64,000 nt of DNA from Chitinophagales bacterium (GTDB lineage: Bacteria; Bacteroidota; Bacteroidia; Chitinophagales; LD1), in assembly GCA_046329575.1 (NCBI GenBank), contig JAXLUJ010000006.1:166121-230120 (forward strand), given 5' to 3'. The stretch's first letter is position 1. Every line of letters begins with the position of its first letter. This document shows, piece by piece, positions 1 to 64,000 of this stretch. Made by a program: the position numbers and the translations under genes. The notes under the pieces are model-generated. The model saw nothing but the letters and a program-made list of their open reading frames with translations. It had not been told where the DNA came from and did no database searches.

Positions 1-3000
1 TGCTGTAGGTAGCATTCACTGCGCCTGAAATGGAACTATTGCCTTTTTTCCATTGGTAAGTAAGATTAGCGCCGGAAGCCACTACGTTGAAATTTACTAA
101 TGAACCCGTGCAAGTAGTTTGTGAAACCGGATTAGTAGTTATTGCTGTAGCCGGATTTACCAAAACTGTTGCAATTGCCGATGTTTTACTGCCACAAGTT
201 CCGGTAATCAGCACGGTATAATTGCCTGAAACTCCTGTTGAAGCGCCGCTTACACTATAGTTGTTTGCAGTAGCAGAAGTAATATCGATGTTATTGCGTT
301 TCCATTGATAGCTCAATCCGGTGCCGGAAGCAGTTACAGAAAGATTGAGATTTCCACCTTCGCAAATGGTTGCGGCAAGCGGTTGTTGCATAATAATTAT
401 GGTGTCGTTTACGGTTACTAATTTCGAAGCTGAAGCCGAACAATTGTTGCCATCGGTTCCGGTAACGCTGTAAGTGGTGCTTATTGAAGGAGAAACATTT
501 TTGGTATTGCCTGAGCCCAAACCGTTGCTCCAATTGAAAGTGAGCGCGCCACCGGCAAGAAGCGTAACCGCACTTCCCTGACAAGTGCTGGTTGCTGTGG
601 ATGGCAAAATCGTAATCACCGGAAGAGCATTCACACTCACCAAACGCGAAGCAGTGGCCGAGCAGTTGGCATCGCTCACCGTAACTGTATAGGTAGTATT
701 TCCCGATGGCGAAACCGTTACTGCCGCATTACTTCCCAAACTATTACTCCATGAATAAGAGGTTCCCCCACTAGCGGTGAGAGTAGTTGAAGTACCTGCG
801 CAAATGGCCACTGAAGATGGCGTGATAGTTGCCGGCGGAAGAGCATTAACGGTAACGATTCGTGAAGCGGTTGCCGTACAGTTATTGGCATCAGTGCCGG
901 TAACCGTGTAGGTGGCTGTATTTGCCGGACTGAATGTGGCAGCAGCATTATTCCCTCCTGAATTGCTCCAATTATAGGTTGAAGCGCCACTAGCCGTGAG
1001 CACTGCAGAACTGCCCGCGCAAATACTGGCCGAGGCCGGTGAAATGGTTACAATGGGTAATGCGTTCACCGTAACTAAACGACTGGCGGTAGCGGAACAA
1101 TTCGCATTTGATACCGTTACGGTATAAGTTGTAATTCCTGTTGGCGAGAAGGTAGCCGCTGCTGCGTTTCCGCCGCTATTGCTCCAACTATAAGTTCCAC
1201 CACCTGATGCAGTCAGCGTAGCCGATGCACCGCTACAAATCGTAACGGTTGCGGGAGTAATAGCAGCCGTTGGCAAAGCATTCACGGTAACAAGGCGCGA
1301 TGCAGTTGCTGAGCAGTTATTTCCATCAGTAACCGTTACCGTGTAGGTAGTGGCGATGGTTGGCGAAACAGAAACCGATGCATTGGTACCAAGCGAATTG
1401 CTCCAGTTAAAACTAGTTGCTCCGCTTGCCGTTAGCGTAGTAGAAGCACCGGCACAAACGGCTGCACTGGCCGGACTAATTGCCGCTACCGGATTGGCAT
1501 TTACATTCAGGCGGCCGATGTTAGAAACGATAGCGCCGCAACTGCCGCCGCCAACCGTAAGCGTATAATTTCCGGAATCAGAAACGGCTACAGCAGCAAT
1601 AGTTAGCGTTGCCGTGGTTGCTCCTGAAACCGCACCTCCGTTTGAAATGGTTACGCCATTTTTCTTCCACACATAAGAAGTTGGTGAGGCACCGGTTGTA
1701 GCAGCAGTAAAGCTTACAGCCGTTCCAACACATTTATTTTGAACTGCAAGAGGCTGTGTGGTAAAGGAAATATTGTTGGCCGACAAAGTGAGTTTTGCTG
1801 TTTTCGATTCTGAACCGTAACATCCATTCAATACAATACAACTATAGTTACCACTATCGCTCAGCGCCAGATTGTTCAGCGTAAGCGAAGCGCTATTTGC
1901 GCCAATAATATCTACTCCATTTTTCTTCCATTGATAAGATAATCCTGTTCCAACTGCAGCAACCGTAAACGTGGCACTATTGCCGCTGCAGGCCGTAACA
2001 TTAGCCGGCTGTTGTGTAATGGCAGGCGCTTCCATCATAGCGCTGATTTCTGTAGCATCTAAAGCGCGATTGTAAATACGAACATCATCAATGGCTCCCT
2101 GCAACACATTACCGCCGCCTTGATCGGCACCAATAATCAATGGATTGCTGTTATTGGTGATGTTTCCTGAAGCAGCGGTGGTGAGAATTAAAACCCCATT
2201 GATGTATTGCTTTACATTGGCGCCATCGTAAGTGCAGGCCAAATGATACCAGGTATTGCTGGAAAGCGAATTGGTAGGATGATAGGCATTACCAAGCATG
2301 ATAACGCGAGGACGGCTCAGGTAAATGTCCATCAAAAAGTTGTTGGAATTATTCTTATCGATCAGGCGCTGATTCGAAGAAATGCTGCTCGATTTCATCC
2401 AGCACGACATGGTAAATTGATTGGTAAAACTTGCGATTGGCACAGCAGAGTTAACACTGGTTTGATTGGGTACCTGAAGCGCAGCATTCGCTGTTCCGTT
2501 ATGATCAGTAGTGTACGCTGCACCTGCTGCCAGTAAGTGAAGTGCATTACCGCTAACATCGTTTACGGCTGCGCCATTTCCCATGGGATAGTGCACTACC
2601 AATCCACTTGCCAATACCACCGATGCCGTTCCGAAATTAATTTTCGCCACATTCGAAGTGGCAGCAGCGCCGTTGCAGTTGGTTACTACGCAAGTGTAGC
2701 TGCCGCTATCGGCATAACTTACATTATTGATTAATAGGGTATCGTTGGTTTGGCCGGCAAGCGCAACATTATTTTTCTTCCATTGGTAAGTACAAAAAGG
2801 AGATGTACCTATGGTAAAAGAAACAGATCCGCCTACACAAGCGGTTTGATCAACCGGCTGATTGGTTATTTGAACGGTTGTAGAAAAACGAAGATGCGCG
2901 GCACTGCTGGTATCGCTGCCACAGGAATTTGTAGCAATCACTTTGTAAAATCCGGTATCGGATGCAGTAACATTTACAAACGAAATGGAATTGGTATTCA

Positions 3001-4693
3001 CACCGCTTAGGTTACCGCTGTTCGCCAGCAGCACATTATTTTTATACCAGGCGTAGCTCACCGCATCGCCATCTACAACAGCGGAAAGGGTGTGCGAAAC
3101 ACCTAAACAAATGCTACTATCGGAAGGAGGAACTGCTACAATGGGTGCACAGCCAATCTTGGCAAGATAACCATCAGTACCTACACTGTTAGTGAATGTA
3201 TTTTTTGAAAGTGTAATCACATTACTAAACCGACCTTCTACGTTCGGACGGTCGTCGAACCCCGACATCCGAAGCGTATGCGTTCCGGTGTTCTTCACCT
3301 TTACATACTTTTCCCAGGTTGCATTTCCGCCGCCTGTATATTTCATTCTGAAAAACAAGGTTCCGTAGTTGGCATTGTTGATAGGATTTAAGGCGGCGCT
3401 TCCGGCAGCAAATGCAGGTGTAAAATTCATGCTTTCCGCACCGGCGCCATTTGTGGTAATGGCCAGCCAAACGCGTCCTGTGGAATCGTAGCAGATACTG
3501 CTTGCAGCGATCTGTGAGTTGTATCCTGAAGAAGCAATATCGTTTTGCCAAACATCTACGAAAGAAGTGTTCATAGCCCGAACATAAATGTGCGTAGGCT
3601 GTGTAGCGAACGATCCGCCTTCGTAGGTGTACGCAATTTCATCGGTTGACTTATTGATGGCCATATCGGTAAGCGTAGTTGGAATGGTGGCCGATAACTG
3701 AAGATTTCCTGTAGAGGCCACATTGCCCAAACTGCCATTTACACGGAAGATACGACCGTAGCGGTTTGAATTTCCTGAAGAAACAGCAAGCGGACCGCCT
3801 CCTGAAAAGGTGAAGGCGCTGGCATTTATAAAATCACATGCAATCAACAAATTGCCGGAGTTATCGGCGGCCAAGGCCTTGATAAATTCCTGTCCGGTAG
3901 TGCCTACGGCACTCATACCAATCCGCTGCGAGGCTACATAATAGCCATTGTCAATATTCACAATTCCATAAAACGCTTCGCGAAAACCGGTGTTGTCGCA
4001 ATTGCCCAAACCGGTAACTACCGCAGGCGAACTTCCCGGACTATAGTGAGAACTGTTATAGGAAGTGTTGGTGGTTGTAGTAGAGAATGCAAAGAACAAT
4101 TTGTTGCGATAACGATTGATGGCCAACTTCATCATATCTACATTTCCCTTTTCGCATTTAAAGCGATTGGTCCATTTTGCAACACCGGAACTATTCAGTT
4201 TGGTGATGTAACCATATTTTTCGTTTACAGGTGTTACACCGGCCAGAAAATAAGTAGTGTCGTTGCCATTGGCAAAGTAGGCACTGCCGTAAGCCACAGG
4301 CGAATAACCACCATAATAAACGTTGGTGTTGCTATCCACAACTATTGAAGATGCTTCAAGCACACAAGTGCCGTTATCAGTGGGCGTGTGCAGCCAGATG
4401 AGATTGCCCGAGGGATTGAATTTGGCCACGAACGGCAGGAAACTGGACGGTGAAACTGTCGAAATACTTTGCGCACCAATAGTGAGTGTGCCGCTGTAAC
4501 GGCCCAGTACATATACGTCGCCATAACGGTCGTGAGTCACATCGGTAGTGTAAGCGTAGCCGCCATTCGAAATTTGTTTAGCCCACTCCCACCCCAATTG
4601 GGCTGTTAGCCGATTGGAACTGAATAAAAAAACGCAACACAGCGCAAAAAAGAACGTCCGCTTTCTTCCTTTTTTGTAAGTATCTAAGTCCAT
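1..4693 (-). CDS. Giant secreted multi-domain surface protein (adhesin-like, probable T9SS cargo); the C-terminus runs off the window edge, so it is missing from the supplied ORF track
   Basis: My own minus-strand translation from the ATG at 4693 (MDLDTYKKGRKRTFFFALCCVFLFSSNRLTAQ, signal-like) stays in frame to position 1; I checked the frame at 4693, 2611 and 4. It contains a LamG/concanavalin-like segment (WYHLACTYDGANVKQYINGV...GAIDDVRIYNRALDATEI, approx 2040-2610) and Ig-like modules with YQWKKNG motifs. About 5 tandem ~76-aa modules (RLVTVNALP..I.P....IC.G.S..LTASG..Y.WSN) lie at approx 400-1500. Confidence 0.85.
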   Translation of the reverse strand, partial: MDLDTYKKGRKRTFFFALCCVFLFSSNRLTAQLGWEWAKQISNGGYAYTTDVTHDRYGDVYVLGRYSGTLTIGAQSISTVSPSSFLPFVAKFNPSGNLIWLHTPTDNGTCVLEASSIVVDSNTNVYYGGYSPVAYGSAYFANGNDTTYFLAGVTPVNEKYGYITKLNSSGVAKWTNRFKCEKGNVDMMKLAINRYRNKLFFAFSTTTTNTSYNSSHYSPGSSPAVVTGLGNCDNTGFREAFYGIVNIDNGYYVASQRIGMSAVGTTGQEFIKALAADNSGNLLIACDFINASAFTFSGGGPLAVSSGNSNRYGRIFRVNGSLGNVASTGNLQLSATIPTTLTDMAINKSTDEIAYTYEGGSFATQPTHIYVRAMNTSFVDVWQNDIASSGYNSQIAASSICYDSTGRVWLAITTNGAGAESMNFTPAFAAGSAALNPINNANYGTLFFRMKYTGGGNATWEKYVKVKNTGTHTLRMSGFDDRPNVEGRFSNVITLSKNTFTNSVGTDGYLAKIGCAPIVAVPPSDSSICLGVSHTLSAVVDGDAVSYAWYKNNVLLANSGNLSGVNTNSISFVNVTASDTGFYKVIATNSCGSDTSSAAHLRFSTTVQITNQPVDQTACVGGSVSFTIGTSPFCTYQWKKNNVALAGQTNDTLLINNVSYADSGSYTCVVTNCNGAAATSNVAKINFGTASVVLASGLVVHYPMGNGAAVNDVSGNALHLLAAGAAYTTDHNGTANAALQVPNQTSVNSAVPIASFTNQFTMSCWMKSSSISSNQRLIDKNNSNNFLMDIYLSRPRVIMLGNAYHPTNSLSSNTWYHLACTYDGANVKQYINGVLILTTAASGNITNNSNPLIIGADQGGGNVLQGAIDDVRIYNRALDATEISAMMEAPAITQQPANVTACSGNSATFTVAAVGTGLSYQWKKNGVDIIGANSASLTLNNLALSDSGNYSCIVLNGCYGSESKTAKLTLSANNISFTTQPLAVQNKCVGTAVSFTAATTGASPTSYVWKKNGVTISNGGAVSGATTATLTIAAVAVSDSGNYTLTVGGGSCGAIVSNIGRLNVNANPVAAISPASAAVCAGASTTLTASGATSFNWSNSLGTNASVSVSPTIATTYTVTVTDGNNCSATASRLVTVNALPTAAITPATVTICSGASATLTASGGGTYSWSNSGGNAAAATFSPTGITTYTVTVSNANCSATASRLVTVNALPIVTISPASASICAGSSAVLTASGASTYNWSNSGGNNAAATFSPANTATYTVTGTDANNCTATASRIVTVNALPPATITPSSVAICAGTSTTLTASGGTSYSWSNSLGSNAAVTVSPSGNTTYTVTVSDANCSATASRLVSVNALPVITILPSTATSTCQGSAVTLLAGGALTFNWSNGLGSGNTKNVSPSISTTYSVTGTDGNNCSASASKLVTVNDTIIIMQQPLAATICEGGNLNLSVTASGTGLSYQWKRNNIDITSATANNYSVSGASTGVSGNYTVLITGTCGSKTSAIATVLVNPATAITTNPVSQTTCTGSLVNFNVVASGANLTYQWKKGNSSISGAVNATYS

Positions 4694-4759
4694 TTTGATT
4701 TTTGTTTGATGCAAAAGTCTGGCCCTGTAACTTTTTAATTTCAGTCACTTCACGAACGG

Positions 4760-4848
4760 TAGGTTTCAGTTCACAAGCAGCAGGCCCTTTTCAGAAATCC
4801 GACTTCGGTGCTGCATTCCGACCGCTCAGAATGGTCAGGTGTTTCAAA
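4760..4848. repeat. Probable degenerate copy (reverse orientation) of the GC-rich interspersed element family
   Basis: The reverse complement contains GCAGCACCGAAGTCGGA...AAAGGGCCTGCTGC. This resembles GGAGCACCGAAGCGATAGCGGA...AAAGCGCGGGTGCCGC in the 44139-44242 copy. Confidence 0.4.
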
Positions 4849-4850
4849 CT

Positions 4851-5003
4851 CGCAGCTCATAGCTCAAAGCTCACAGCTCAAAGCTTTCCTCTTGCATCTT
4901 GCATCTTGCATCTTGCGTCTTGTGCCTTGCATCTTGCGTCTTGCGTCTCGCGTCTCGCATCTTGCATCTTGCGTCTTCCTCTCCCCTCTCTTCCTCCTCT
5001 CTT
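4851..5003. repeat. Heptamer-block array, left arm: AGCTCAN block, CTTGCRT block (about 12 units), CT-rich block
   Basis: 7-nt periodicity read directly from the sequence. It is a module-level reverse complement of 5941-6071. Confidence 0.85.
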
Positions 5004-5940: not shown

Positions 5941-6071
5941 AGGGGAATTTTAGGAGAAGAAGGCGCAAGACACAAGAGGCAAGACACAAGATGCAAGACA
6001 CAAGACACAAGACACAAGAAGCAAGAGTAAAGCTGTGAGTTTTGAGCTATGAGCTATGAGCTACGAGCTGC
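5941..6071. repeat. Heptamer-block array, right arm: AG-rich block, GCAAGAY block (about 9 units), TGAGCTN block
   Basis: It starts on the base after the methyltransferase stop codon. It carries the same three modules as 4851-5003 in inverted order. Confidence 0.85.
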
Positions 6072-6184: not shown

Positions 6185-6910
6185 ATGAAAGAAAAACTAC
6201 TATTCATCGCCCTGCTGCTGAGCACCATTCTAAATGCGCAAACTCTTAATGATATAGACGGCGATGGAACGGTGAATTCAGCTGATAATTGTATGTTCTT
6301 TCCTAATCCCGGACAAACTGATTCCGATAATGATGGTGTTGGCGATGCCTGCGATCCTTCGCCAATGGTGGCCAATCCGGTGTGCGATCGGCCCGGTAAT
6401 TCATTCACCTATGTGCAGCCCGACTCTGTAATTTCGGTGGGAACGAAAGTCACCTTTCAGGTTATTACACAACGTCCGGATTCCATAATATGGTATAAGA
6501 ACAATGTTGCTGTAGGAACCAATAGCACTTCTTACGTCGATAGCACGCTAAGCAATTCCGATCGTATTTGGTGCAGTATTGTAATCAACGATGCGTGCCA
6601 TGCGAACCGCATAGAAGTAAAAGGCAACGAGATACAAATGACAGTACATCCATTACACACCGGTGTGGAGGAAGTGCAACCGTCTGTTTCAGTAACCTTG
6701 ATTCCAAATCCTGCTCATGGCCAAATGCAATTGTTTTGCAATCAAAAAATCACCAAGGTTTCGATCATAAATAATATTGGCGCCAAAGTTTCGGAATGGG
6801 AACAACCTGCCTTCTCCCATTTCGATATCAGCAATTTACAGAATGGCATTTATTCTGTTTTGGCAGAACATTTCAATGGAAGAACAGCCGTTCGACTGGT
6901 TGTGGAATAA
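6185..6910 (+). CDS. Secreted protein with thrombospondin type-3-like Ca-binding repeats and a T9SS C-terminal sorting domain
   Basis: Signal peptide [19 protein letters not shown]; [31 protein letters not shown]; C-terminus [13 protein letters not shown]...[22 protein letters not shown]. Confidence 0.8.
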
Positions 6911-6984
6911 CTGATTCAACTTTTCTTCCATCTGGTTTTTACATACACTAAGACGGCTGCTGTTTTCGTTCTATCAAAAACGAT

Positions 6985-9469: not shown

Positions 9470-9544
9470 TCGGGGTACCAGGATTCGAACCTGGGACCCC
9501 CTGCTCCCAAAGCAGGTGCGCTAACCGGGCTGCGCTACACCCCG
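9470..9544 (-). tRNA. tRNA-Pro (anticodon TGG)
   Basis: Manual cloverleaf: CGGGGTG acceptor, anticodon loop TTTGGGA, T-loop TTCGAAT, discriminator A. Confidence 0.9.
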
Positions 9545-9552
9545 AACTTACG

Positions 9553-9641
9553 CGGTGAGAGAGGGATTCGAACCCTCGGTACAGTTTAACCCGTACGTCA
9601 GTTTAGCAAACTGGTGGTTTCAGCCTCTCACCCATCTCACC
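9553..9641 (-). tRNA. tRNA-Ser (anticodon GCT), class II with long variable arm
   Basis: GGTGAGA acceptor, anticodon loop TTGCTAA, long variable arm, T-loop TTCGAAT, discriminator G. Confidence 0.85.
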
Positions 9642-11203: not shown

Positions 11204-11608
11204 TTACTTCAAATAATTTTTCCTAATCCGATAAACCGGCCCCGGACATTCTTCCATATGACAGGTGATGCAACTCTTCACCACTATATTGTACTGTGCT
11301 CGCCGGGCCGTATCGCTTTCCGTTTTTTCATACGCATCCAACTCCTTGTAAAACGTGCCAATGTACGCCTCGTGAGCGTCAGACAAATGTTTGGTTTCCG
11401 TTGCTTTCGCCTTTAAGAATTTGGCCTGCTTCACCGGAAATTTCGCCTGCGGCTTGCCTTCTTTCAACCGTACATTTTCTTTCTCCAAATACCACTCCAT
11501 CTTCTGCATCAATTTACTCATCTCGCTTTCGCCTTCGGCCGGCAGGGCTGCAGCTATCAATCCCAACGCCATGATGGCCCAAATTAGTAGCAATACTTTC
11601 GTTTTCAT
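11204..11608 (-). CDS. Class II-type c cytochrome (single C-terminal CxxCH)
   Basis: I re-called the start to MKTKVLLLIWAIMALGLIAA (ATG at 11608). The heme motif CITCH lies about 20 aa from the C-terminus of a ~134-aa helical protein. Confidence 0.65.
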   Translation of the reverse strand: MKTKVLLLIWAIMALGLIAAALPAEGESEMSKLMQKMEWYLEKENVRLKEGKPQAKFPVKQAKFLKAKATETKHLSDAHEAYIGTFYKELDAYEKTESDTARRAQYNIVVKSCITCHMEECPGPVYRIRKNYLK

Positions 11609-20087: not shown

Positions 20088-21137
20088 GTGGAAAAACGGA
20101 CCGACATACGAAAACTGAATCGCGATCAATTAGCGGCGGCCTTTAAGGAACTGAACGAGCCAGCCTTCCGCGCCAGGCAAGTGTACGACTGGCTTTGGAA
20201 CAAATCGGCGCGCAGTTTCGATGAAATGACCAATCTGTCGAAATCGTTACGCGAAAAGCTGCAACAGCAATTTGATTTTTATGCGGTTGAAGAAAGTATT
20301 CTTCAGAAAAGCAAGGATGGCACGCTGAAGCTAGGCATGAAATTAAGCGACCACCGATTGGTGGAAGGTGTGATGATTCCCGATGAAGACCGGAACACCG
20401 CCTGCGTTTCGTCGCAGGTAGGTTGTTCGCTGAGCTGCACCTTTTGCGCCACCGGCTTTTTGAAACGCGAACGCAATCTCGATTTTGGTGAAATTTACGA
20501 TCAGGTGGTTTTGCTCAACAACCGAGCAAAAGAAACCACAGGCCGCGGCCTTACCAATATTGTGTATATGGGCATGGGCGAGCCTTTGCTGAATTACGAC
20601 AATGTGATGCAAAGTATCAAACTGATTACGTCACCGGAAGGTTTGGGAATGGCGCAGAAACGGATTACGGTTTCTACTTCGGGCATTTCCAGAGGTATTC
20701 GCCGCTTAGCCGATGAAGACATGAACTTTAATTTGGCACTGTCGTTACACGCGGCTACCAACGAGAAACGCAATGAGATTATGGACATCAACCGCAGCAA
20801 TCCGCTGGAAGAAGTGATGGAAGCGCTGCTGTACTTTAATGAAAAGACCGGCAACAAAATCACGTTTGAATATATTTTGTTCGACCGGTTCAATGACCGT
20901 ATTGATGATGCGGAGCATTTGGTGAAGCTGGTGAAAAAAGTACCGGCCTTTGTAAATCTTATTGAATACAACAATGTAGAAGGGGTTACGCTGAAACGCG
21001 CCAAACCTGAGCGGCGCGATGCCTTTTTAAGGCATTTGCACCTCAATGGCATTAGCGCTGCGGTGCGCCGAAGCCGCGGCAAAGACATTGATGCTGCATG
21101 TGGGCAGTTAGCGAATAAAGCCGGAGAAAAGAACTGA
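20088..21137 (+). CDS. rlmN: 23S rRNA/tRNA A2503/A37 C2-methyltransferase (radical SAM)
   Basis: CSLSCTFCATG radical-SAM cluster and the MGMGEPL motif. I moved the start to the GTG at 20088 because the track start at 20067 lies inside the upstream terminator. The exact start is uncertain. Confidence 0.9.
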   Translation: MEKRTDIRKLNRDQLAAAFKELNEPAFRARQVYDWLWNKSARSFDEMTNLSKSLREKLQQQFDFYAVEESILQKSKDGTLKLGMKLSDHRLVEGVMIPDEDRNTACVSSQVGCSLSCTFCATGFLKRERNLDFGEIYDQVVLLNNRAKETTGRGLTNIVYMGMGEPLLNYDNVMQSIKLITSPEGLGMAQKRITVSTSGISRGIRRLADEDMNFNLALSLHAATNEKRNEIMDINRSNPLEEVMEALLYFNEKTGNKITFEYILFDRFNDRIDDAEHLVKLVKKVPAFVNLIEYNNVEGVTLKRAKPERRDAFLRHLHLNGISAAVRRSRGKDIDAACGQLANKAGEKN

Positions 21138-21160
21138 AAGTTGAAAGTTTATAGCTGAGT

Positions 21161-21244
21161 TGCGTGAGCGGGCGCAGTGAAAAGCCCGCAAGCGAGCGAG
21201 GAACGAGCGAGTGCGGACTTGTAACGAAGCACGCGACCCCGGGC
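21161..21244. repeat. GC-rich interspersed element copy, flanked by short GAAAGTT-type heptamer arms (21137-21160 and 21247-21270)
   Basis: Hairpin GCGGGC-(10 nt)-GCCCGC at 21068+100 offset, i.e. 21168-21189. GAGGAACGA and GTAACGAAGCAC are shared with other copies. Confidence 0.55.
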
Positions 21245-21338
21245 AATTACTTTTAATTTGAATATTAGTTACGGCCAAAAGCCCGGGGGCACGCCATAAA
21301 AAATAAATTTCGCAAAATTGCTTTTAGAATAAGGCGGT

Positions 21339-23054: not shown

Positions 23055-23166
23055 AAAGTTATAAGTTCTGAGTTCTAAGTTCTGAGTTCTGAGTAAAAAT
23101 GGAGCGTTCAAACTCCGTGACCCAATTACCCTTAATTTTAAACTTATAACTTGTAACTTAAAATTA
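23055..23166. repeat. Self-contained heptamer-array hairpin (RAGTTCT-type arm, approx 37-nt centre, inverted AACTTRT-type arm) directly after yajC
   Basis: Left arm 23055-23094, right arm 23132-23166. The complementarity is imperfect and tolerates register shifts. Confidence 0.75.
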
Positions 23167-24892: not shown

Positions 24893-25038
24893 AAATAATT
24901 CTCTTATCTTCGAAAAAATCTTCGCCTATGGTATGACAAACGAAAATTCTGTCCTTTGATTTGCGGACAAAAATTAAAGCAAATCGAGCGTTCGCCGAAA
25001 AGCTATATAGAGTAGGTGTCAACTAACCAAAAATCAAA

Positions 25039-25494
25039 ATGAAAAAACTAATTTTAATTTGTTCGTTATCTATTGCATCCGTAAATTTTTGTAGTGCACT
25101 CGCATATGTCTGCTATTCTACTTCATGGGGGCCAAACTGTTTTGGATCAAATGGTAACTGTGACTATTTCTATAGCCATGGATGTAATACAAACTGCACG
25201 TGCACACAACTTTTACAATATCAACCAATTTGGAATAGAACAGATTTCACTTTCGGTTCAGAAAAGGAAAACTCTGTTTCCATAAAAAATTCTGAAGGAA
25301 AAATTATTGCCAATTTAGAACTCAATGACATTCCGGAAGGATCAGTTTTCCGTATAGATTATATCGAAAGTCTTAATATTATGTGCTTCCGCTTTTACAA
25401 CGGTGTTTTGCTTTCAAAAATTTCGGATATAAAAAATGCTAGTCCGTGTGAATTCGATGAGGCTTTGGTTAAAGAGATTAAAATATCTATTTAA
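25039..25494 (+). CDS. Small secreted Cys-rich protein, unknown function
   Basis: Signal peptide MKKLILICSLSIASVNFCSA. The Cys-rich stretch is YVCYSTSWGPNCFGSNGNCDYFYSHGCNTNCTC. Confidence 0.6.
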   Translation: MKKLILICSLSIASVNFCSALAYVCYSTSWGPNCFGSNGNCDYFYSHGCNTNCTCTQLLQYQPIWNRTDFTFGSEKENSVSIKNSEGKIIANLELNDIPEGSVFRIDYIESLNIMCFRFYNGVLLSKISDIKNASPCEFDEALVKEIKISI

Positions 25495-30305: not shown

Positions 30306-30387
30306 ACAATTCACAATGGACAATGAACAATGAACAATGAACGATGAACGATGTGTCATAAGTCATTGTAAATTGTGAATTGTAAAT
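30306..30387. repeat. Self-contained heptamer-array hairpin (ACAATGA arm / TCATTGT-AATTGTR arm) directly after gcvP
   Basis: Left arm 30306-30352, centre TGTCATAAGT, right arm 30364-30387. Confidence 0.75.
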
Positions 30388-30669
30388 GGCGTTGTTGCAT
30401 GAAATTATAGTCTAAACAGGATTTTTATTTTTGCGGATGCCGGGCTGTTCGCTGCAAGTCCTCAGCCGCGGCCTAACTTTTGTGATCCTTGAAATGCAGC
30501 AGTGGCGCGGCTTCCGGGCTTTCCGCTACCATCCCTACCGCGGTTTGCCAAAATATAAAGCCAAACTCATTTTGAACAACACACACAAGTCCTTTTAAAT
30601 ATTTCATCACCTTTTATGAGGCAATGCCCATCCTTGGCGCGTCTGAATTATTCATGCAACAACGCCATT
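30385..30669. mobile_element. MITE-like 285-bp non-coding insertion with 19-bp perfect terminal inverted repeats; contains a GC-rich family element (approx 30436-30545, reverse orientation)
   Basis: AATGGCGTTGTTGCATGAA (30385-30403) is the exact reverse complement of TTCATGCAACAACGCCATT (30651-30669). The flanks on both sides are ATTGTRA heptamers that would be contiguous without the segment. Confidence 0.45.
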
Positions 30670-30704
30670 GTAAATTGTAAATTGTGAATTGTGAATTGTG
30701 AATT
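30667..30704. repeat. ATTGTRA heptamer array (about 5 units), left arm of the 30.7-31.9 kb cassette
   Basis: Reads ATTGTAAATTGTAAATTGTGAATTGTGAATTGTGAATT. Confidence 0.8.
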
Positions 30705-31785: not shown

Positions 31786-31895
31786 GGCCCGGCTTCGAAG
31801 CGGCCGGGATTGGAATGGTGCCGCCGAAGGCGGCAGTGCGTAGTGAAACGAAGCACCGGAGCGATAGCGAAGCCATGCAAAGCCCGTAAGCCGCC
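31786..31895. repeat. GC-rich interspersed element copy
   Basis: About 80 percent identical, by my manual alignment, to 44139-44242 (GATTGGAATGG...AGCACCGGAGCGATAGCGAAGCCATGCAAAGCCCGTAAGCCGCC). Hairpin TGCCGCC-GAA-GGCGGCA at 31819-31835. Confidence 0.75.
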
Positions 31896-32017
31896 AAAAT
31901 TCAATTTACAATGAACAATACACAATGGACAATGGACAATGAACAATGAACAATGAACAATGAACAATGAATAATGAATAATGAATAATCGACAATGGAC
32001 AATTCAAAATTTAAAAT
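31896..32017. repeat. ACAATGA heptamer array (about 17 units), right arm of the 30.7-31.9 kb cassette
   Basis: 7-nt periodicity with variants ACAATGG, ATAATGA and ACAATAC. It is the reverse complement class of 30667-30704. Confidence 0.85.
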
Positions 32018-34545: not shown

Positions 34546-34923
34546 AGGGAGAGGCAAGACACAAGATGCAAGACGCAAGAGGCAAGCCATGAGCCGATAG
34601 TTATGAGCTGCGAGCTACAACACACTCACGCTACCAATACACCGATACACGGATACACGTTTAGATGCAAGACGCAAGACACAAGACGCAAGTCGCAAGC
34701 TGTGAGCTGAGAGTTATGAGCTGTGAGCTTCAACACACTAACTCTACCAATACACCGATACACGGATACACGTTTAGATACAAGACGCAAGACACAAGAT
34801 GCAAGACGCAAGAGGCAAGCCATGAGCCGATAGTTATGAGCTGTGAGCTTCTACACACTCACCAAACTTACCAAACTCACCACACCTACCACACCTACCA
34901 CACCTACCACACCCACCATACCC
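34546..34923. repeat. Composite tandem array: three 113-bp units, each made of a GCAAGAC block, a TGAGCTN block and an ACACAC/ATACACGGATACACG block; the last unit ends in CACCTACCA 9-mers
   Basis: Unit starts are at 34554, 34667 and 34780. 34554-34610 is identical to 34787-34843 (57 nt), and 34631-34666 is identical to 34744-34779 (36 nt), by my reading. Confidence 0.9.
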
Positions 34924-40858: not shown

Positions 40859-40956
40859 TTATAAGTTATAAGTGGAAAATTGAAAGTAAAATTGAAGTGG
40901 CTGAGATTTTGCCAATCGTCCATTTTACATTTTCAACTTTCAACTTTTAATTTAAT
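40859..40956. repeat. Self-contained heptamer-array hairpin (GTGGAAA/TTGAAAG arm, 19-nt loop, inverted arm)
   Basis: Left arm 40859-40900, loop 40901-40919, right arm 40920-40956. Confidence 0.75.
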
Positions 40957-41070
40957 GGCGGCACCCGCGCTCTACGTTCCAATCTTTTTGCGCGGCCACT
41001 GATTCATTACTTCCGAGGTTGCGGAATGCCGCGCAAAAAGGATTTCCACTTCGATCGCTGCCGCGGTTGG
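40957..41070. repeat. GC-rich interspersed element copy (reverse orientation)
   Basis: The reverse complement starts CCGCGGCAGCGATCGAAGTGG and ends AGCGCGGGTGCCGCC, like the 44139-44242 copy. The internal hairpin has a 13-bp perfect stem, CTTTTTGCGCGGC (40984-40996) / GCCGCGCAAAAAG (41028-41040). Confidence 0.7.
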
Positions 41071-43281: not shown

Positions 43282-44061
43282 ATGATTAAAAATATACTGC
43301 CTTTAGTTGCAGTGCTCCTATTTGGTTGCAACCATCAGCCGGCTACACCACCGGCAGCGAACCTTCACTTCACTACTAAAACCATTATAAAGAGTACGGG
43401 ACCTTGCAAAGACTCGGTATCGGTTTGTGCCAAAGTAACTTTTGAATTTCCGGTGTTTGAAGGCGAAGATGCCGATAGTTTAAATGCTTTGGTGGCTTTA
43501 AAGATGGGCGCCGGATATCTCGACACGCTTCACCATAGTAACTACAAGGAAGTAGCAGAACAATTCCTTAGTAGCTATGATACTATTTTAAAGCAGATGA
43601 CTGATTATACGCTGCCTTGGGAATGGACGAAGAAGGTGGAAGTGTTTTCGCAATCAAATGGCCTGATAACGTTGCACGTTTATAATTACGATTTTGCAGG
43701 TGGCAATCACGGAAATGAGTATAACGAATATCTTCACTACGATTTGTTGCAACATCGTTCGTTGCATTATACCGATGTGATTGAAACCGGGAAAAGCACC
43801 GCTTTTACTGCTATTGCCGAAAATATTTTTCGGGAGAATTTTCATTTAAAAAAGGATGAGCCCCTGGATAGCGTGGGATTTTTCTTTGACGAAGGAAAGT
43901 TCACCCTTCCTGAAAACTATTGGTTTACCGACACCGGAATTGTTTTTCATTATAACGATTATGAATTGCGATCGCATGCCGAAGGTCCTTATGATTTAAT
44001 GATTCCATATGATGCCTTCGATTCGTTGCGAAAAAAGGCAGCGCCCGAAAAAAATTCCTGA
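43282..44061 (+). CDS. DUF4163/DUF3298 (RsiV/PdaC N-terminal-like) lipoprotein
   Basis: Lipobox VLLFGCN and the characteristic FAGGNHGNEY motif. Confidence 0.7.
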   Translation: MIKNILPLVAVLLFGCNHQPATPPAANLHFTTKTIIKSTGPCKDSVSVCAKVTFEFPVFEGEDADSLNALVALKMGAGYLDTLHHSNYKEVAEQFLSSYDTILKQMTDYTLPWEWTKKVEVFSQSNGLITLHVYNYDFAGGNHGNEYNEYLHYDLLQHRSLHYTDVIETGKSTAFTAIAENIFRENFHLKKDEPLDSVGFFFDEGKFTLPENYWFTDTGIVFHYNDYELRSHAEGPYDLMIPYDAFDSLRKKAAPEKNS

Positions 44062-44138: not shown

Positions 44139-44242
44139 CCCGCGGCAGCGATTGGAGTGGCGCTCCTGAAAGGAGCGGTGCGCAGGGAGGAACGACCGGA
44201 GCACCGAAGCGATAGCGGAGCCACGCAAAGCGCGGGTGCCGC
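44139..44242. repeat. GC-rich interspersed element, reference copy
   Basis: CCGCGGCAGCGATTGGAGTGG, then hairpin CGCTCC-TGAAA-GGAGCG (44161-44177), then ...GGAGCACCGAAGCGATAGCGGAGCCACGCAAAGCGCGGGTGCCGC. Confidence 0.75.
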
Positions 44243-44248
44243 AAAAAT

Positions 44249-44345
44249 AGTTACAAGTGATAAGTTGAAAGTTACAAATTTAAAATGCAAAATTTCCAGA
44301 AGCTGCGCTTTCCACTTTCATCTCTCATCTCTCATCTCTCCACTC
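44249..44345. repeat. Heptamer-block arrays (AAGTTRA type, then inverted CATCTCT/CCACTTT type) abutting the cytochrome c stop codon
   Basis: 44249-44287 and 44308-44345. They are inverted at the module level only, and nucleotide complementarity looks weak by eye. Confidence 0.55.
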
Positions 44346-45335
44346 TTAAAGTTCTTCTTTGTCCCACTGGCGGTTCACTTCGTTTTTGAGGGCGGGAACG
44401 CTGTGCAAATAGGTCCAGATGGCATGAATTTCGGCATCGGTCATTGCATTGTAAGCAGGCATTGGCATGCGAAGCTGACGCTGATTTTTAGAAATACTTT
44501 TACGCATGGCATTGGCGAAATCGGTTTCGGTCCATTTGCCAATTCCGGTTGATTCATCGCAAGTAATATTGGCGGTATAAATCAGGTTTCCGGCAGCAGT
44601 TACCATCGCATTGCCGCCGCCCAAATAACCGCCACTGTGCTCGGGCGTTTGCATGTCCATGCTTTTGAAATCGGCAGAATGACAAGGAAAACAGTCGTAA
44701 CGCGCACAAACCAAATACCGCCCAAAAGCCGCGGCATCATTGCTATCGGGCGTTTCGACAGACGACTTCGGATAATCAACTTTTCTAAAATTATCGGTTT
44801 GACTAAGAAACTTGGTCATCAAACTATAATGCGAAGGTACCGAAGCGATTTCCGACGATTGAACTACGGGATTTTCGGAACGAAGAAAAGTAATGATACC
44901 GCGGAGGTCATCATCGCTCAGCCGCGGATACTTGGGCATGATAGGCGAAAATGTTCCTGAGGGTTTTACACCGGTGCGAAGAAAATAAACCAATTGTTCG
45001 TCGGTCCAGTTACCAATACCATGCGTTTTGCTATGAGTAATATTTGCCGAATACACCTCGCCAAAAATTTCAGGCAGCTCCGTTATTTTCCTTCCGCTTA
45101 GTTTTCCATCGCTACCCATATGACAAACCACACATTGCACGGCGGCAATTTTTTCGCCTTTAGCCAATGATGCAGCATCTTTCACGGAGGTATCAAAATG
45201 AATTTTCTCTACCTCATAAACCGGAAGGCCTCTAAAGTGCAGATAGGCCATCGCACTAATCAAAATCACGGCCACAGCGGCCACCAGCAACAACACCATG
45301 CGTAACCCTTTGTTCATATTACGGATTATTTTCAT
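44346..45335 (-). CDS. Membrane-anchored dihaem c-type cytochrome
   Basis: Two CxxCH motifs (CVVCH, CFPCH) and an N-terminal TM segment. I moved the start to the ATG at 45335 (or 45317), because the track TTG start lies in the ftsZ terminator U-run. Confidence 0.8.
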   Translation of the reverse strand: MKIIRNMNKGLRMVLLLVAAVAVILISAMAYLHFRGLPVYEVEKIHFDTSVKDAASLAKGEKIAAVQCVVCHMGSDGKLSGRKITELPEIFGEVYSANITHSKTHGIGNWTDEQLVYFLRTGVKPSGTFSPIMPKYPRLSDDDLRGIITFLRSENPVVQSSEIASVPSHYSLMTKFLSQTDNFRKVDYPKSSVETPDSNDAAAFGRYLVCARYDCFPCHSADFKSMDMQTPEHSGGYLGGGNAMVTAAGNLIYTANITCDESTGIGKWTETDFANAMRKSISKNQRQLRMPMPAYNAMTDAEIHAIWTYLHSVPALKNEVNRQWDKEEL

Positions 45336-45357
45336 GCAATATAGAAGTCTGCCGAAC

Positions 45358-45386
45358 AAAAAAAAATCCCGGCGTTACCGGGATTT
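45358..45386 (-). terminator. Rho-independent terminator closing the dcw operon after ftsZ
   Basis: The minus strand reads AAATCCCGG-TAACG-CCGGGATTT, with the stem running into a 9-U run. Confidence 0.85.
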
Positions 45387-61355: not shown

Positions 61356-61522
61356 GGCTGTAAATTCATTGAAAACCAAGGTGTCTACCACCCTATCGGG
61401 AATCCAAAAGAGAAAACAGGTGCTGTAAATTCATTGAAAACCAAGGTGTCTACCACCCCTACGAACTTTGTGAGGCTCAGAAAGCATGCTGTAAATTCAT
61501 TGAAAACCAAGGTGTCTACCAC
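61356..61522. CRISPR. CRISPR-like mini-array: 3 perfect 36-bp direct repeats with two unique spacers (29 and 30 bp); no cas genes in the window
   Basis: GCTGTAAATTCATTGAAAACCAAGGTGTCTACCACC occurs at 61356, 61421 and 61487. The spacers are CTATCGGGAATCCAAAAGAGAAAACAGGT and CCTACGAACTTTGTGAGGCTCAGAAAGCAT. An AT-rich flank lies at 61262-61355. Confidence 0.45.
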
Positions 61523-61546
61523 CATAGTTTTCTGTTTCTTTGCAGA

Positions 61547-63539: not shown

Positions 63540-63624
63540 TGGTGCCCAGGAAGGGACTCGAACCCCCACACCTTGCGGCTCTCGCACCTGAAACGAGCGC
63601 GTCTACCAATTTCGCCACCTGGGC
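63540..63624 (-). tRNA. tRNA-Leu (anticodon CAG), class II, encoded CCA
   Basis: GCCCAGGTGGCGAAATTGGTAGACGC 5' half, anticodon loop TTCAGGT, long variable arm, T-loop TTCGAGT, and 3' ACCA. Confidence 0.9.
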
Positions 63625-63832: not shown

Positions 63833-64000
63833 CCCTTGCGTCTTGCATCTTGCGTCTTGTGTCTTGCGTCTTGCGTCTGGACGTGTATCCGTGTATTAGT
63901 TTATCCGTATGTTCGTGTGGCATAGCTAAAAGCTCATGGCTCACGGCTCACGGCTCGCAACTTGCCCCTTACGTCTTGCCCCTTGTGTCTTGCGTCTTGC
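63833..64000. repeat. Composite heptamer-block array, reverse-complement orientation of the 34546-34923 family; continues past the window edge
   Basis: GTCTTGC block, then ACGTGTATCCGTGTAT (the reverse complement of ATACACGGATACACGT at 34.65 kb), then an AGCTCA/GGCTCAC block, then a GTCTTGC block. Confidence 0.85.

Follow-up and report, generated by a model that had tools for sequence, protein, structure and literature searches.

The locus and the anatomy of the element

The window analysed here, a continuous stretch of 64,000 nucleotides from the genome of a Chitinophagales bacterium, carries at positions 44139-44242 a GC-rich element (~65% GC, vs ~45% across the window) whose sequence matches the description given in the first-pass annotation of this DNA. 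It sits between two convergent genes, one encoding a DUF3298/PdaC protein (43282-44061, +) and the other a cytochrome c (44346-45359, -). Its parts are listed below; copies are referred to throughout by the start positions first assigned to them.

44142-44242, +: flagged element from P0 to P0, a putative branched Flavo-1-like variant
44142-44146, +: 5' strand of P0 (GCGGC), which pairs with GCCGC at 44238-44242; predicted independently by RNAalifold
44148-44160, +: 5' box GCG-A-UU-GGA-GUGG, made up of the 5' sides of P1a, P1b and P1c and of a GGA internal loop; pairs with 44221-44233
44161-44177, +: hairpin A, CGCUCCU-GAA-AGGAGCG, the variable hairpin of the first-pass annotation
44178-44204, +: hairpin B, GUGC...GCAC with a purine-rich loop; three of its four stem pairs appear in the RNAalifold consensus
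44205-44220, +: junction single strand CGAAGCGAUAGCGGAG, near-invariant in alignment A1
44221-44233, +: 3' box CCAC-GCA-AA-G-CGC, comprising the 3' strands of P1c, P1b and P1a (pair counts, RNAalifold)
44238-44247, +: 3' strand of P0 (GCCGC) followed by an A tract

The "conserved ends" reported earlier are the two strands of a single interrupted basal helix (P0, P1a, P1b, P1c), as in the Flavo-1 RNA motif. In the flagged copy this basal part reads GCGGC-A-GCG-A-UU-GGA-GUGG ... CCAC-GCA-AA-G-CGC-GGGU-GCCGC, with conserved purine-rich internal loops (ex. GGA opposite GCA) separating the short helices, and its 5' box is the counterpart of the Flavo-1 5' arm ccGAUuGaAGcGG. The P0-equivalent pairs of the metagenome copies, read by eye, are GUGUU/AACAC and GCGUU/AACGC. 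In the 44139, 31786 and 30436 copies, as in two copies from a related metagenome-assembled genome (MAG; L001 and L003), P0 runs into an A-rich tail, which is weaker in the 40957 copy (CAUUAAAUUAAAAG).

The branched subtype comprises hairpins A and B plus a near-invariant purine-rich strand, CCGNAGCGAUAGCGRAGCC. The junction strand is invariant except at two positions in the seven copies of alignment A1, which come from Bacteroidota, Spirochaetota and a metagenome. Read by eye, the 3' side of the flagged copy resembles a canonical Flavo-1 3' arm (GAU-AGCGGA) with part of another 3' arm (AYGSAAAGCSSG) behind it, a doubling which suggests that the subtype may have originated by duplication of an arm module.

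Copies in the window

The first-pass annotation had listed six copies in 64 kb, of which four are solid, one (21161) is a decayed relative belonging to another subtype, and one (4760) is false. Besides the flagged element, the copies are:

31800-31894, +: second branched-subtype copy, found by blastn to 44139 (E=2e-14); core 95% identical to that of L001
40959-41066, -: canonical unbranched Flavo-1 copy (RF01705, 52.5 bits, E=1.7e-8), with end boxes shared with the flagged copy
30434-30553, -: Flavo-1-like copy below the Rfam threshold (RF01705, 26.9 bits; R1, 24.9 bits, E=3e-5)
21161-21244, +: decayed Flavo-1 copy of the GCGUGAG...AGCCCGACC subtype, from pairwise alignment to published rows

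The homology of the 44139 and 31786 copies was borne out by blastn (74.8% identity over 107 nt, E=2e-14), with 81% identity outside the variable hairpin. The 44139 and 40957 copies, in turn, are joined by blastn only through ~20 nt at each end, both 90% identical. With up to three mismatches allowed, the window's only matches to the 5' box are those at 44140-44160 (+) and 41046-41066 (-), with none expected by chance and none found in 100 shuffles; the 3' box falls in the same two copies (44227-44242, +, and 40958-40973, -).

When aligned to the RF01705 model, the boxes of the 40957 copy pair as GCG/CGC, UC/GA, GU/AC and AAUC/GAUU with purine-rich loops between them, and the best pairwise match of this copy is the Treponema denticola row of the 2010 Flavo-1 alignment (z=13). 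The copy at 30434-30553 reaches z=11 against the published Flavo-1 rows, and its minimum-free-energy fold shows the ladder typical of Flavo-1, built from helices of 2-3 bp and 3x3 loops. Both are also retrieved, via the basal helix, by R1, a covariance model trained solely on the flagged (branched) subtype: with filters off, its scan of the window returned 30423-30547 (-) at 24.9 bits (E=3e-5) and 40948-41070 (-) at 21.3 bits (E=3.5e-4), with the next match at E=0.14. The flagged copy itself scores 119.7 bits with R1, as a training sequence and thus by construction.

The 21161-21244 copy is matched by neither R1 nor RF01705 (Rfam scan of 21120-21290). Its local alignment to the Flavobacterium johnsoniae Flavo-1 rows (z=14.3, 0/300 shuffles) argues for a decayed copy of a different Flavo-1 subtype. 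The sequence at 4760-4848 (-) gave nothing by blastn, R1, RF01705 or pairwise alignment, and is not a member.

Assignment to the Flavo-1 family

The Flavo-1 RNA motif was described by Weinberg et al. (2010, Genome Biol 11:R31; PMC2864571) from 239 examples in Bacteroidetes and a few Spirochaetes; covariation was marked in the alignment, and the motif was judged non-cis-regulatory with no function proposed. Single records were matched repeatedly in that set, ex. NC_009441 and NC_009613 (PMC2864571 supplement), and Flavo-1 ranks with the most abundant sRNA families in Rfam (PMC9029176).

The first-pass annotation had found the element not assignable to any known family. This does not hold for the window, as one copy exceeds the RF01705 gathering threshold (42 bits in Rfam 15) and another lies below it. 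The Rfam search that it had proposed was run and matched a known family, an outcome which it had itself named as reducing novelty. The flagged copy gave no RF01705 hit at E<=10 in a 221-nt scan, only chance-level matches (ex. P10, PVT1), and the 31786 copy gave no RF01705 match in the whole-window scan. Given that the flagged copy fails the Rfam model, its membership rests on the shared ends and on bridging sequences, such as a Treponema copy of the flagged subtype (L002) which scores 29.6 bits with RF01705 and thereby links the branched subtype to the family.

Several defining features of Flavo-1 are present. The flagged subtype has the same basal helix, in which a 5' arm SSGAUUGNAGYGG pairs with a 3' arm ...AAGCSS (box ...AAAGCSSG) through a ladder of 2-4 bp helices with purine-rich loops, below a variable distal part. 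It is likewise multi-copy (4-5 copies in 64 kb), intergenic, found in either orientation, without a fixed neighbour, and distributed over Bacteroidota and a few Spirochaetes. A T9SS sorting domain is encoded in the window.

The architecture differs in the distal part. Whereas canonical Flavo-1 is one long unbranched hairpin with a terminal stem of variable length, the flagged subtype bears two hairpins and the conserved strand CCGNAGCGAUAGCGRAGCC distal to P1c, and an extra module in the 3' arm displaces the canonical GNAGCGGA block into the junction. The sequence GCGAUAGCGGAGCC is absent from the 2010 Flavo-1 alignment and GCGAUAGCG occurs there once, in a terminal loop; the outer stem is GCGGC/GCCGC, while the flanks of Flavo-1 in Flavobacteria are GCGUKAG...GACC or UAGCC...GGGA. 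Taken on sequence and predicted structure, the flagged element is very probably a divergent, branched member of the Flavo-1 superfamily.

Covariation and folding

Pairing was evaluated on a structure of five helices (26 pairs) in alignment A1, a sample of seven sequences that includes two sequence pairs near-identical in the core and three non-Chitinophagales rows poorly aligned at hairpin A. In this alignment 91.9% of cells pair, vs 33-51% when partners are slid by 1-3 columns, and the covariation score is 0.33, vs 0.175 in shuffles. Changes on both sides with pairing kept are seen at 10 of the 26 pairs across the seven copies (0/500 shuffles), which upholds the earlier proposal that a GC-rich family scattered through this DNA is selected to fold as a single strand. 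P1a and P1c are 100% paired in the seven copies: one P1a pair occurs as GC, AU or CG and the next as GC or CG, and P1c opens with a pair that is G-C in four copies, A-U in the other three and never broken. Without an input structure, RNAalifold recovers P0, P1a, P1c and hairpin B. Among the window copies, the second P1b pair, read from the sequence, is U-A in 44139 and 31786, C-G in 40957 and G-C in 30436. Selection keeps pairing in P1a, P1c and hairpin A, together with the exact sequence of formally unpaired nucleotides.

Every stem of the Chitinophagales copies is Watson-Crick only, with no G.U pair, and both strands fold about equally well, so that the fold would fit either strand, as RNA or as single-stranded DNA; only the conserved purine-rich loops point to the strand modelled by Rfam. 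Fold energies of single copies are weakly better than those of shuffles (z -0.8 to -2.1).

The variable hairpin

The hairpin first reported at 44161-44177 exists and is really 7 bp long (CGCUCCU/AGGAGCG, with a GAA loop), and the homologous position in the 31786 copy does carry the reported UGCCGCC/GGCGGCA stem. With the two copies from the related MAG, four different stems occupy the same alignment column in four Chitinophagales copies: CGCUCCU (44139), UGCCGCC (31819-31835), CCGCGCC (L001) and UGUACGCC (L003), all of them perfect Watson-Crick stems of 7-8 bp with 3-nt loops. The earlier claim of a hairpin fixed in position, with pairing kept despite turnover of its sequence, is therefore sound for these copies. 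Identity in hairpin A is 53% between 31786 and L001 and 24% between 44139 and L003, yet both members of each comparison are perfectly paired; hairpin A is thus constrained only to pair. Relative to the UGCGNAGCA motif, the variable hairpin is slightly shifted in the copies from Treponema and the metagenome.

The stems that had been listed for the 21161 and 40957 copies occupy a structural position different from that of the 44161 hairpin, and the 13-bp stem of 40957 is an ordinary variable distal stem of Flavo-1 rather than an equivalent of hairpin A. Hairpin A is only one of several variable distal parts, and the best-behaved covariation lies in the paired ends; a conserved basal scaffold with free distal hairpins is the general rule. 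Comparison of hairpin A with ±400 nt of flanking sequence gave no match beyond that of shuffles, and no second copy of any hairpin was found; the idea of hairpin A as a guide thus gained no support.

Relatives in other genomes

Five further copies of the branched subtype were identified, from a related Chitinophagales MAG (two), a Treponema MAG (one) and a metagenome (two).

L001 and L003, Chitinophagales MAG STL-BAC28: branched subtype, pattern scan of species genomes
L002, rumen Treponema MAG: branched subtype, pattern scan of species genomes
L004 and L005, metagenome: AT-rich copies

Scanning 185,579 species genomes with the pattern GATTGGARTGGN{30,60}AGCGATAGCGRAGCC returned three loci and scanning metagenomes with AGCGATAGCGRAGCCAYGSAAAGC returned two, both patterns being too strict for these counts to support a claim of rarity for the branched subtype. 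Across the seven sequences of A1 the block CCGNAGCGAUAGCGRAGCCAYGSAAAGC is invariant save at its degenerate positions, and a 30-nt block is found again in other phyla. A blastn search of plasmids with both subtypes gave no match. Viral contigs gave six exact 17-mer matches, all weak against R1 (<=15.7 bits, E>=0.017).

Outside hairpin A, the core of the 31786 copy is 95% identical to that of L001 (74/78) and the core of the 44139 copy 91% identical to that of L003 (71/78). Of the available relatives of the source genome, STL-BAC28 is one of the closest, and its GcvP is 79% and its cytochrome c 55% identical to the proteins encoded there. A core conserved at 91-95% while proteins stand at 55-79% suggests either strong purifying selection on the core or recent exchange.

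Sub-threshold Flavo-1-like matches of 24-34 bits were also observed in the related Chitinophagales MAG and a metagenome contig, at 6812-6966 (-) and 11455-11559 (-) of L007, 22256-22418 (+) of L015 and 3662-3785 (-) of L005; in this material the family is dense and mostly below the gathering score. The density of Flavo-1-like copies is 4-5 in the 64-kb window and ~5 in the ~50 kb sampled from STL-BAC28, or ~1 per 10-15 kb.

Genomic context

The neighbouring genes differ at every copy. Of the five copies in the window, three occupy convergent spacers and the 31786 copy a divergent one, and the 40957 copy sits in the spacer of a tandem gene pair, antisense to both genes, so the earlier placement of the element at the 3' side of genes does not describe the set; the five outside copies are equally mixed in orientation to their neighbours. 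Nor is synteny conserved. The gcvP locus of STL-BAC28 carries no element after gcvP, and its cytochrome c locus has a Flavo-1-like match ~490 nt downstream, antisense as in the window; a second relative has none.

Every copy had also been said to adjoin a heptamer array. By an approximate hand tally of arrays detected with TRF, such arrays occur in 3/5 element-bearing spacers vs ~8 of the ~18 spacers of at least 100 bp (Fisher p=0.61), and the association is not significant.

The location of three of the five copies between convergent genes, and the occurrence of GC-rich elements in a 45% GC genome, could be read as ordinary GC-rich terminators or look-alike chance hairpins. No terminator-like site, however, was found overlapping or following any copy, while a classic one was found at 45386-45364; the end boxes have zero chance expectation, and the same 30-nt block occurs in other phyla. 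The candidate of an intrinsic terminator was further rejected on the A tract, rather than U tract, that follows the element. The terminator or chance reading is effectively refuted, and we assign it only a marginal probability.

The window and the related contigs hold several other features. Arrays of 7-nt units lie at 4854-4977, 5965-6069, 23056-23094, 30313-30353, 30667-30704, 31908-32003, 34550-34922, 44311-44346 and 63835-63993, with units that differ per array (AGCTCAA, TCTTGCA, CAAGACA, ACAATGA, ATTGTGA, AGACGCA, TCTCATC, CTTGCGT). Nearly half of the longer intergenic spacers contain such arrays, which are reminiscent of cyanobacterial STRR repeats; L001 and L003 have no heptamer arrays beside their elements. 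Longer tandem repeats are found at 34550-34859 (a 113-bp unit x2.6 made from heptamer blocks), 34854-34923 (a 9-nt unit, CACACCCAC/ACCACACCT, x7-8) and 61357-61523 (a 66-bp unit x2.6). The 30434-30553 copy lies in a 247-bp segment bounded by a 33-nt inverted repeat (30371-30403/30651-30683), whose arms are 82% complementary and share a perfect 19-nt core (TTCATGCAACAACGCCATT); heptamer arrays are present outside both arms in direct orientation, and no other copy is bracketed in this way.

An ORF of >1570 codons (1-4714, -) runs off the left end of the window, and the sequence at 4760-4848 is found a short way upstream of the start of this ORF rather than at the 3' side of a gene. Three tRNA genes are present (9470-9544, 9553-9641 and 63543-63624, all -), and the antisense of the second gives a spurious sub-threshold match to a plastid 3'UTR family. 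A 600-bp spacer contains a sub-threshold match to DUF805b RNA (24985-25018, +; 23.8 bits vs 35.6, E=0.023); no Pfam family was matched by the ORF that closely follows it (25039-25494), and the expected association with a DUF805 gene was not seen. On a related metagenomic contig (L017), the Acido-Lenti-1 RNA motif (RF01687) was detected at 4238-4282 (-) with 41.8 bits (threshold 37), ~120 nt upstream of an IS200-like Y1 transposase gene (3667-4119, -; Y1_Tnp, E=2e-26), just downstream of gcvP. This arrangement suggests that the Acido-Lenti-1 motif may form the folded terminus of an IS200/IS605-type element.

Comparison with known repeat classes

The element resembles REP/BIME and REPIN sequences in being a high-copy extragenic palindromic unit that occurs in either orientation, often between convergent genes, and in having a structure conserved above its stem sequence. 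REPs, however, are 20-40 nt long and carry a GT[AG]G foot, whereas the flagged element is ~100 nt long and has conserved internal loops and cross-phylum sequence conservation. The REP/REPIN hairpin-and-foot arrangement was rejected, as GT[AG]G is not conserved here: hairpin A is preceded by RUGG, which is AUGG in three of the seven copies. RAYTs are usually single-copy, and within the 64 kb covered no Y1_Tnp gene is found among the copy-flanking genes with a Pfam family.

Pneumococcal BOX elements have the structure boxA-boxB(n)-boxC and are confined to one genus. They are comparable to the flagged element in their constant end modules that pair together, exchangeable or variable middle, dispersed intergenic copies and lack of an encoded protein; there is no sequence relationship between the two, and the flagged core, unlike BOX, is conserved across phyla.

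Other candidates were rejected as well. The ends of the element pair (P0) as in a MITE, but no direct repeat flanks the 44139, 31786, 40957 or 30436 copies. By eye, an integron attC site was dismissed for want of a GTTRRRY core and a cassette array, and a protein-coding reading on account of indels between copies whose lengths are not divisible by three (ex. hairpin A, with 17 or 19 nt) and of compensatory substitutions.

A function at the level of DNA, in which a single-stranded fold is recognised by a transposase or recombinase that copies the element, in the style of REP/RAYT systems or IS200/IS605 ends, would account for multiple copies dispersed in non-homologous spacers. It would also suit the perfect Watson-Crick stems without G.U and the equal folding of the two strands, as well as the two copies that share identical termini around unrelated interiors, from which the ends may be the recognised part. 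A RAYT subclass particular to Bacteroidota (2.6) also exists, and "atypical" structures flank it (PMC6006769). The REPs of this subclass, however, are 24-35 nt GCTRG-plus-hairpin units unlike Flavo-1 (PMC6006769 Table S1), and were rejected as relatives of the element. Furthermore, the GT[AG]G foot is absent, no target-site duplication is visible at the copy boundaries, and no Y1 or other transposase is found among the copy-flanking genes with a Pfam family; the plasmid search by blastn found no match and viral contigs only weak ones. We consider a DNA-level element unlikely.

Proposed mode of action

Evidence on transcription of Flavo-1 bears on a second alternative, that the copies are stand-alone small RNA genes, each transcribed alone, with a core that binds a common protein and a hairpin A that gives each paralogue its specificity. 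Core conservation far above that of proteins, together with one hairpin that varies but always pairs, is consistent with this, as is the presence of copies in both orientations and in unrelated contexts, as for independent genes. The Rfam type of Flavo-1 is "Gene; sRNA", and Flavo-1 regions have been reported as unannotated transcripts in Leptospira (bioRxiv 10.1101/2023.03.29.534852). In Flavobacterium psychrophilum, on the other hand, Flavo-1 matches fall on the sense or the antisense strand of transcribed regions, and many of them show no transcription (PMC9723704). The copies studied here have neither a terminator-like site nor, by eye, a shared upstream motif, and P0 is followed by an A tract and not a U tract. 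Given that hairpin A matches nothing in the flanks and is not repeated elsewhere, it has no evident target. Independent sRNA genes thus seem an improbable explanation of the set.

The reading that we prefer, at a probability of roughly 55% for the whole, is that of a branched Flavo-1 variant acting as a generic folded module. The mode of action can be proposed only tentatively. The element would be a context-independent folded module comparable to REP/BIME or pneumococcal BOX, in which the basal helix with its G.A-type loops may serve as a recognition platform for a conserved protein while the distal hairpins would need stability only. It could be carried in any transcript that reads through it, or be exposed as single-stranded DNA, and its role would not be tied to the regulation of one particular gene. 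A generic role is argued for by neighbours that differ at every copy, by the mixed orientations and by the STL-BAC28 gcvP locus that lacks the element; presence at non-homologous intergenic sites implies some copying or mobility; and a conserved core combined with complete turnover of one hairpin argues for a conserved trans-acting partner.

A more far-reaching interpretation is that the branched subtype forms a distinct functional class derived from Flavo-1, with an ultra-conserved core shared by Bacteroidota and Spirochaetota, probably through horizontal transfer, and a hairpin that is deliberately diversified but kept paired. We regard this as quite improbable, more so than either of the two alternatives above. 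If true, the hairpin would be the specificity or "address" module of an RNA-guided, ssDNA-guided or mobile system, and not neutral decoration.

Significance

To our knowledge, no function has become known for Flavo-1 since 2010. The element flagged in this window is a real, folded, multi-copy intergenic repeat of an already described family, and the branched form is, as judged from its sequence and predicted fold, a Flavo-1 variant that the current Rfam model misses, from which it follows that current Flavo-1 counts underestimate the family. For annotation, these elements should be labelled Flavo-1-like and not as a new family. The Flavo-1 family thereby extends into the Chitinophagales, at about one copy per 10-15 kb.
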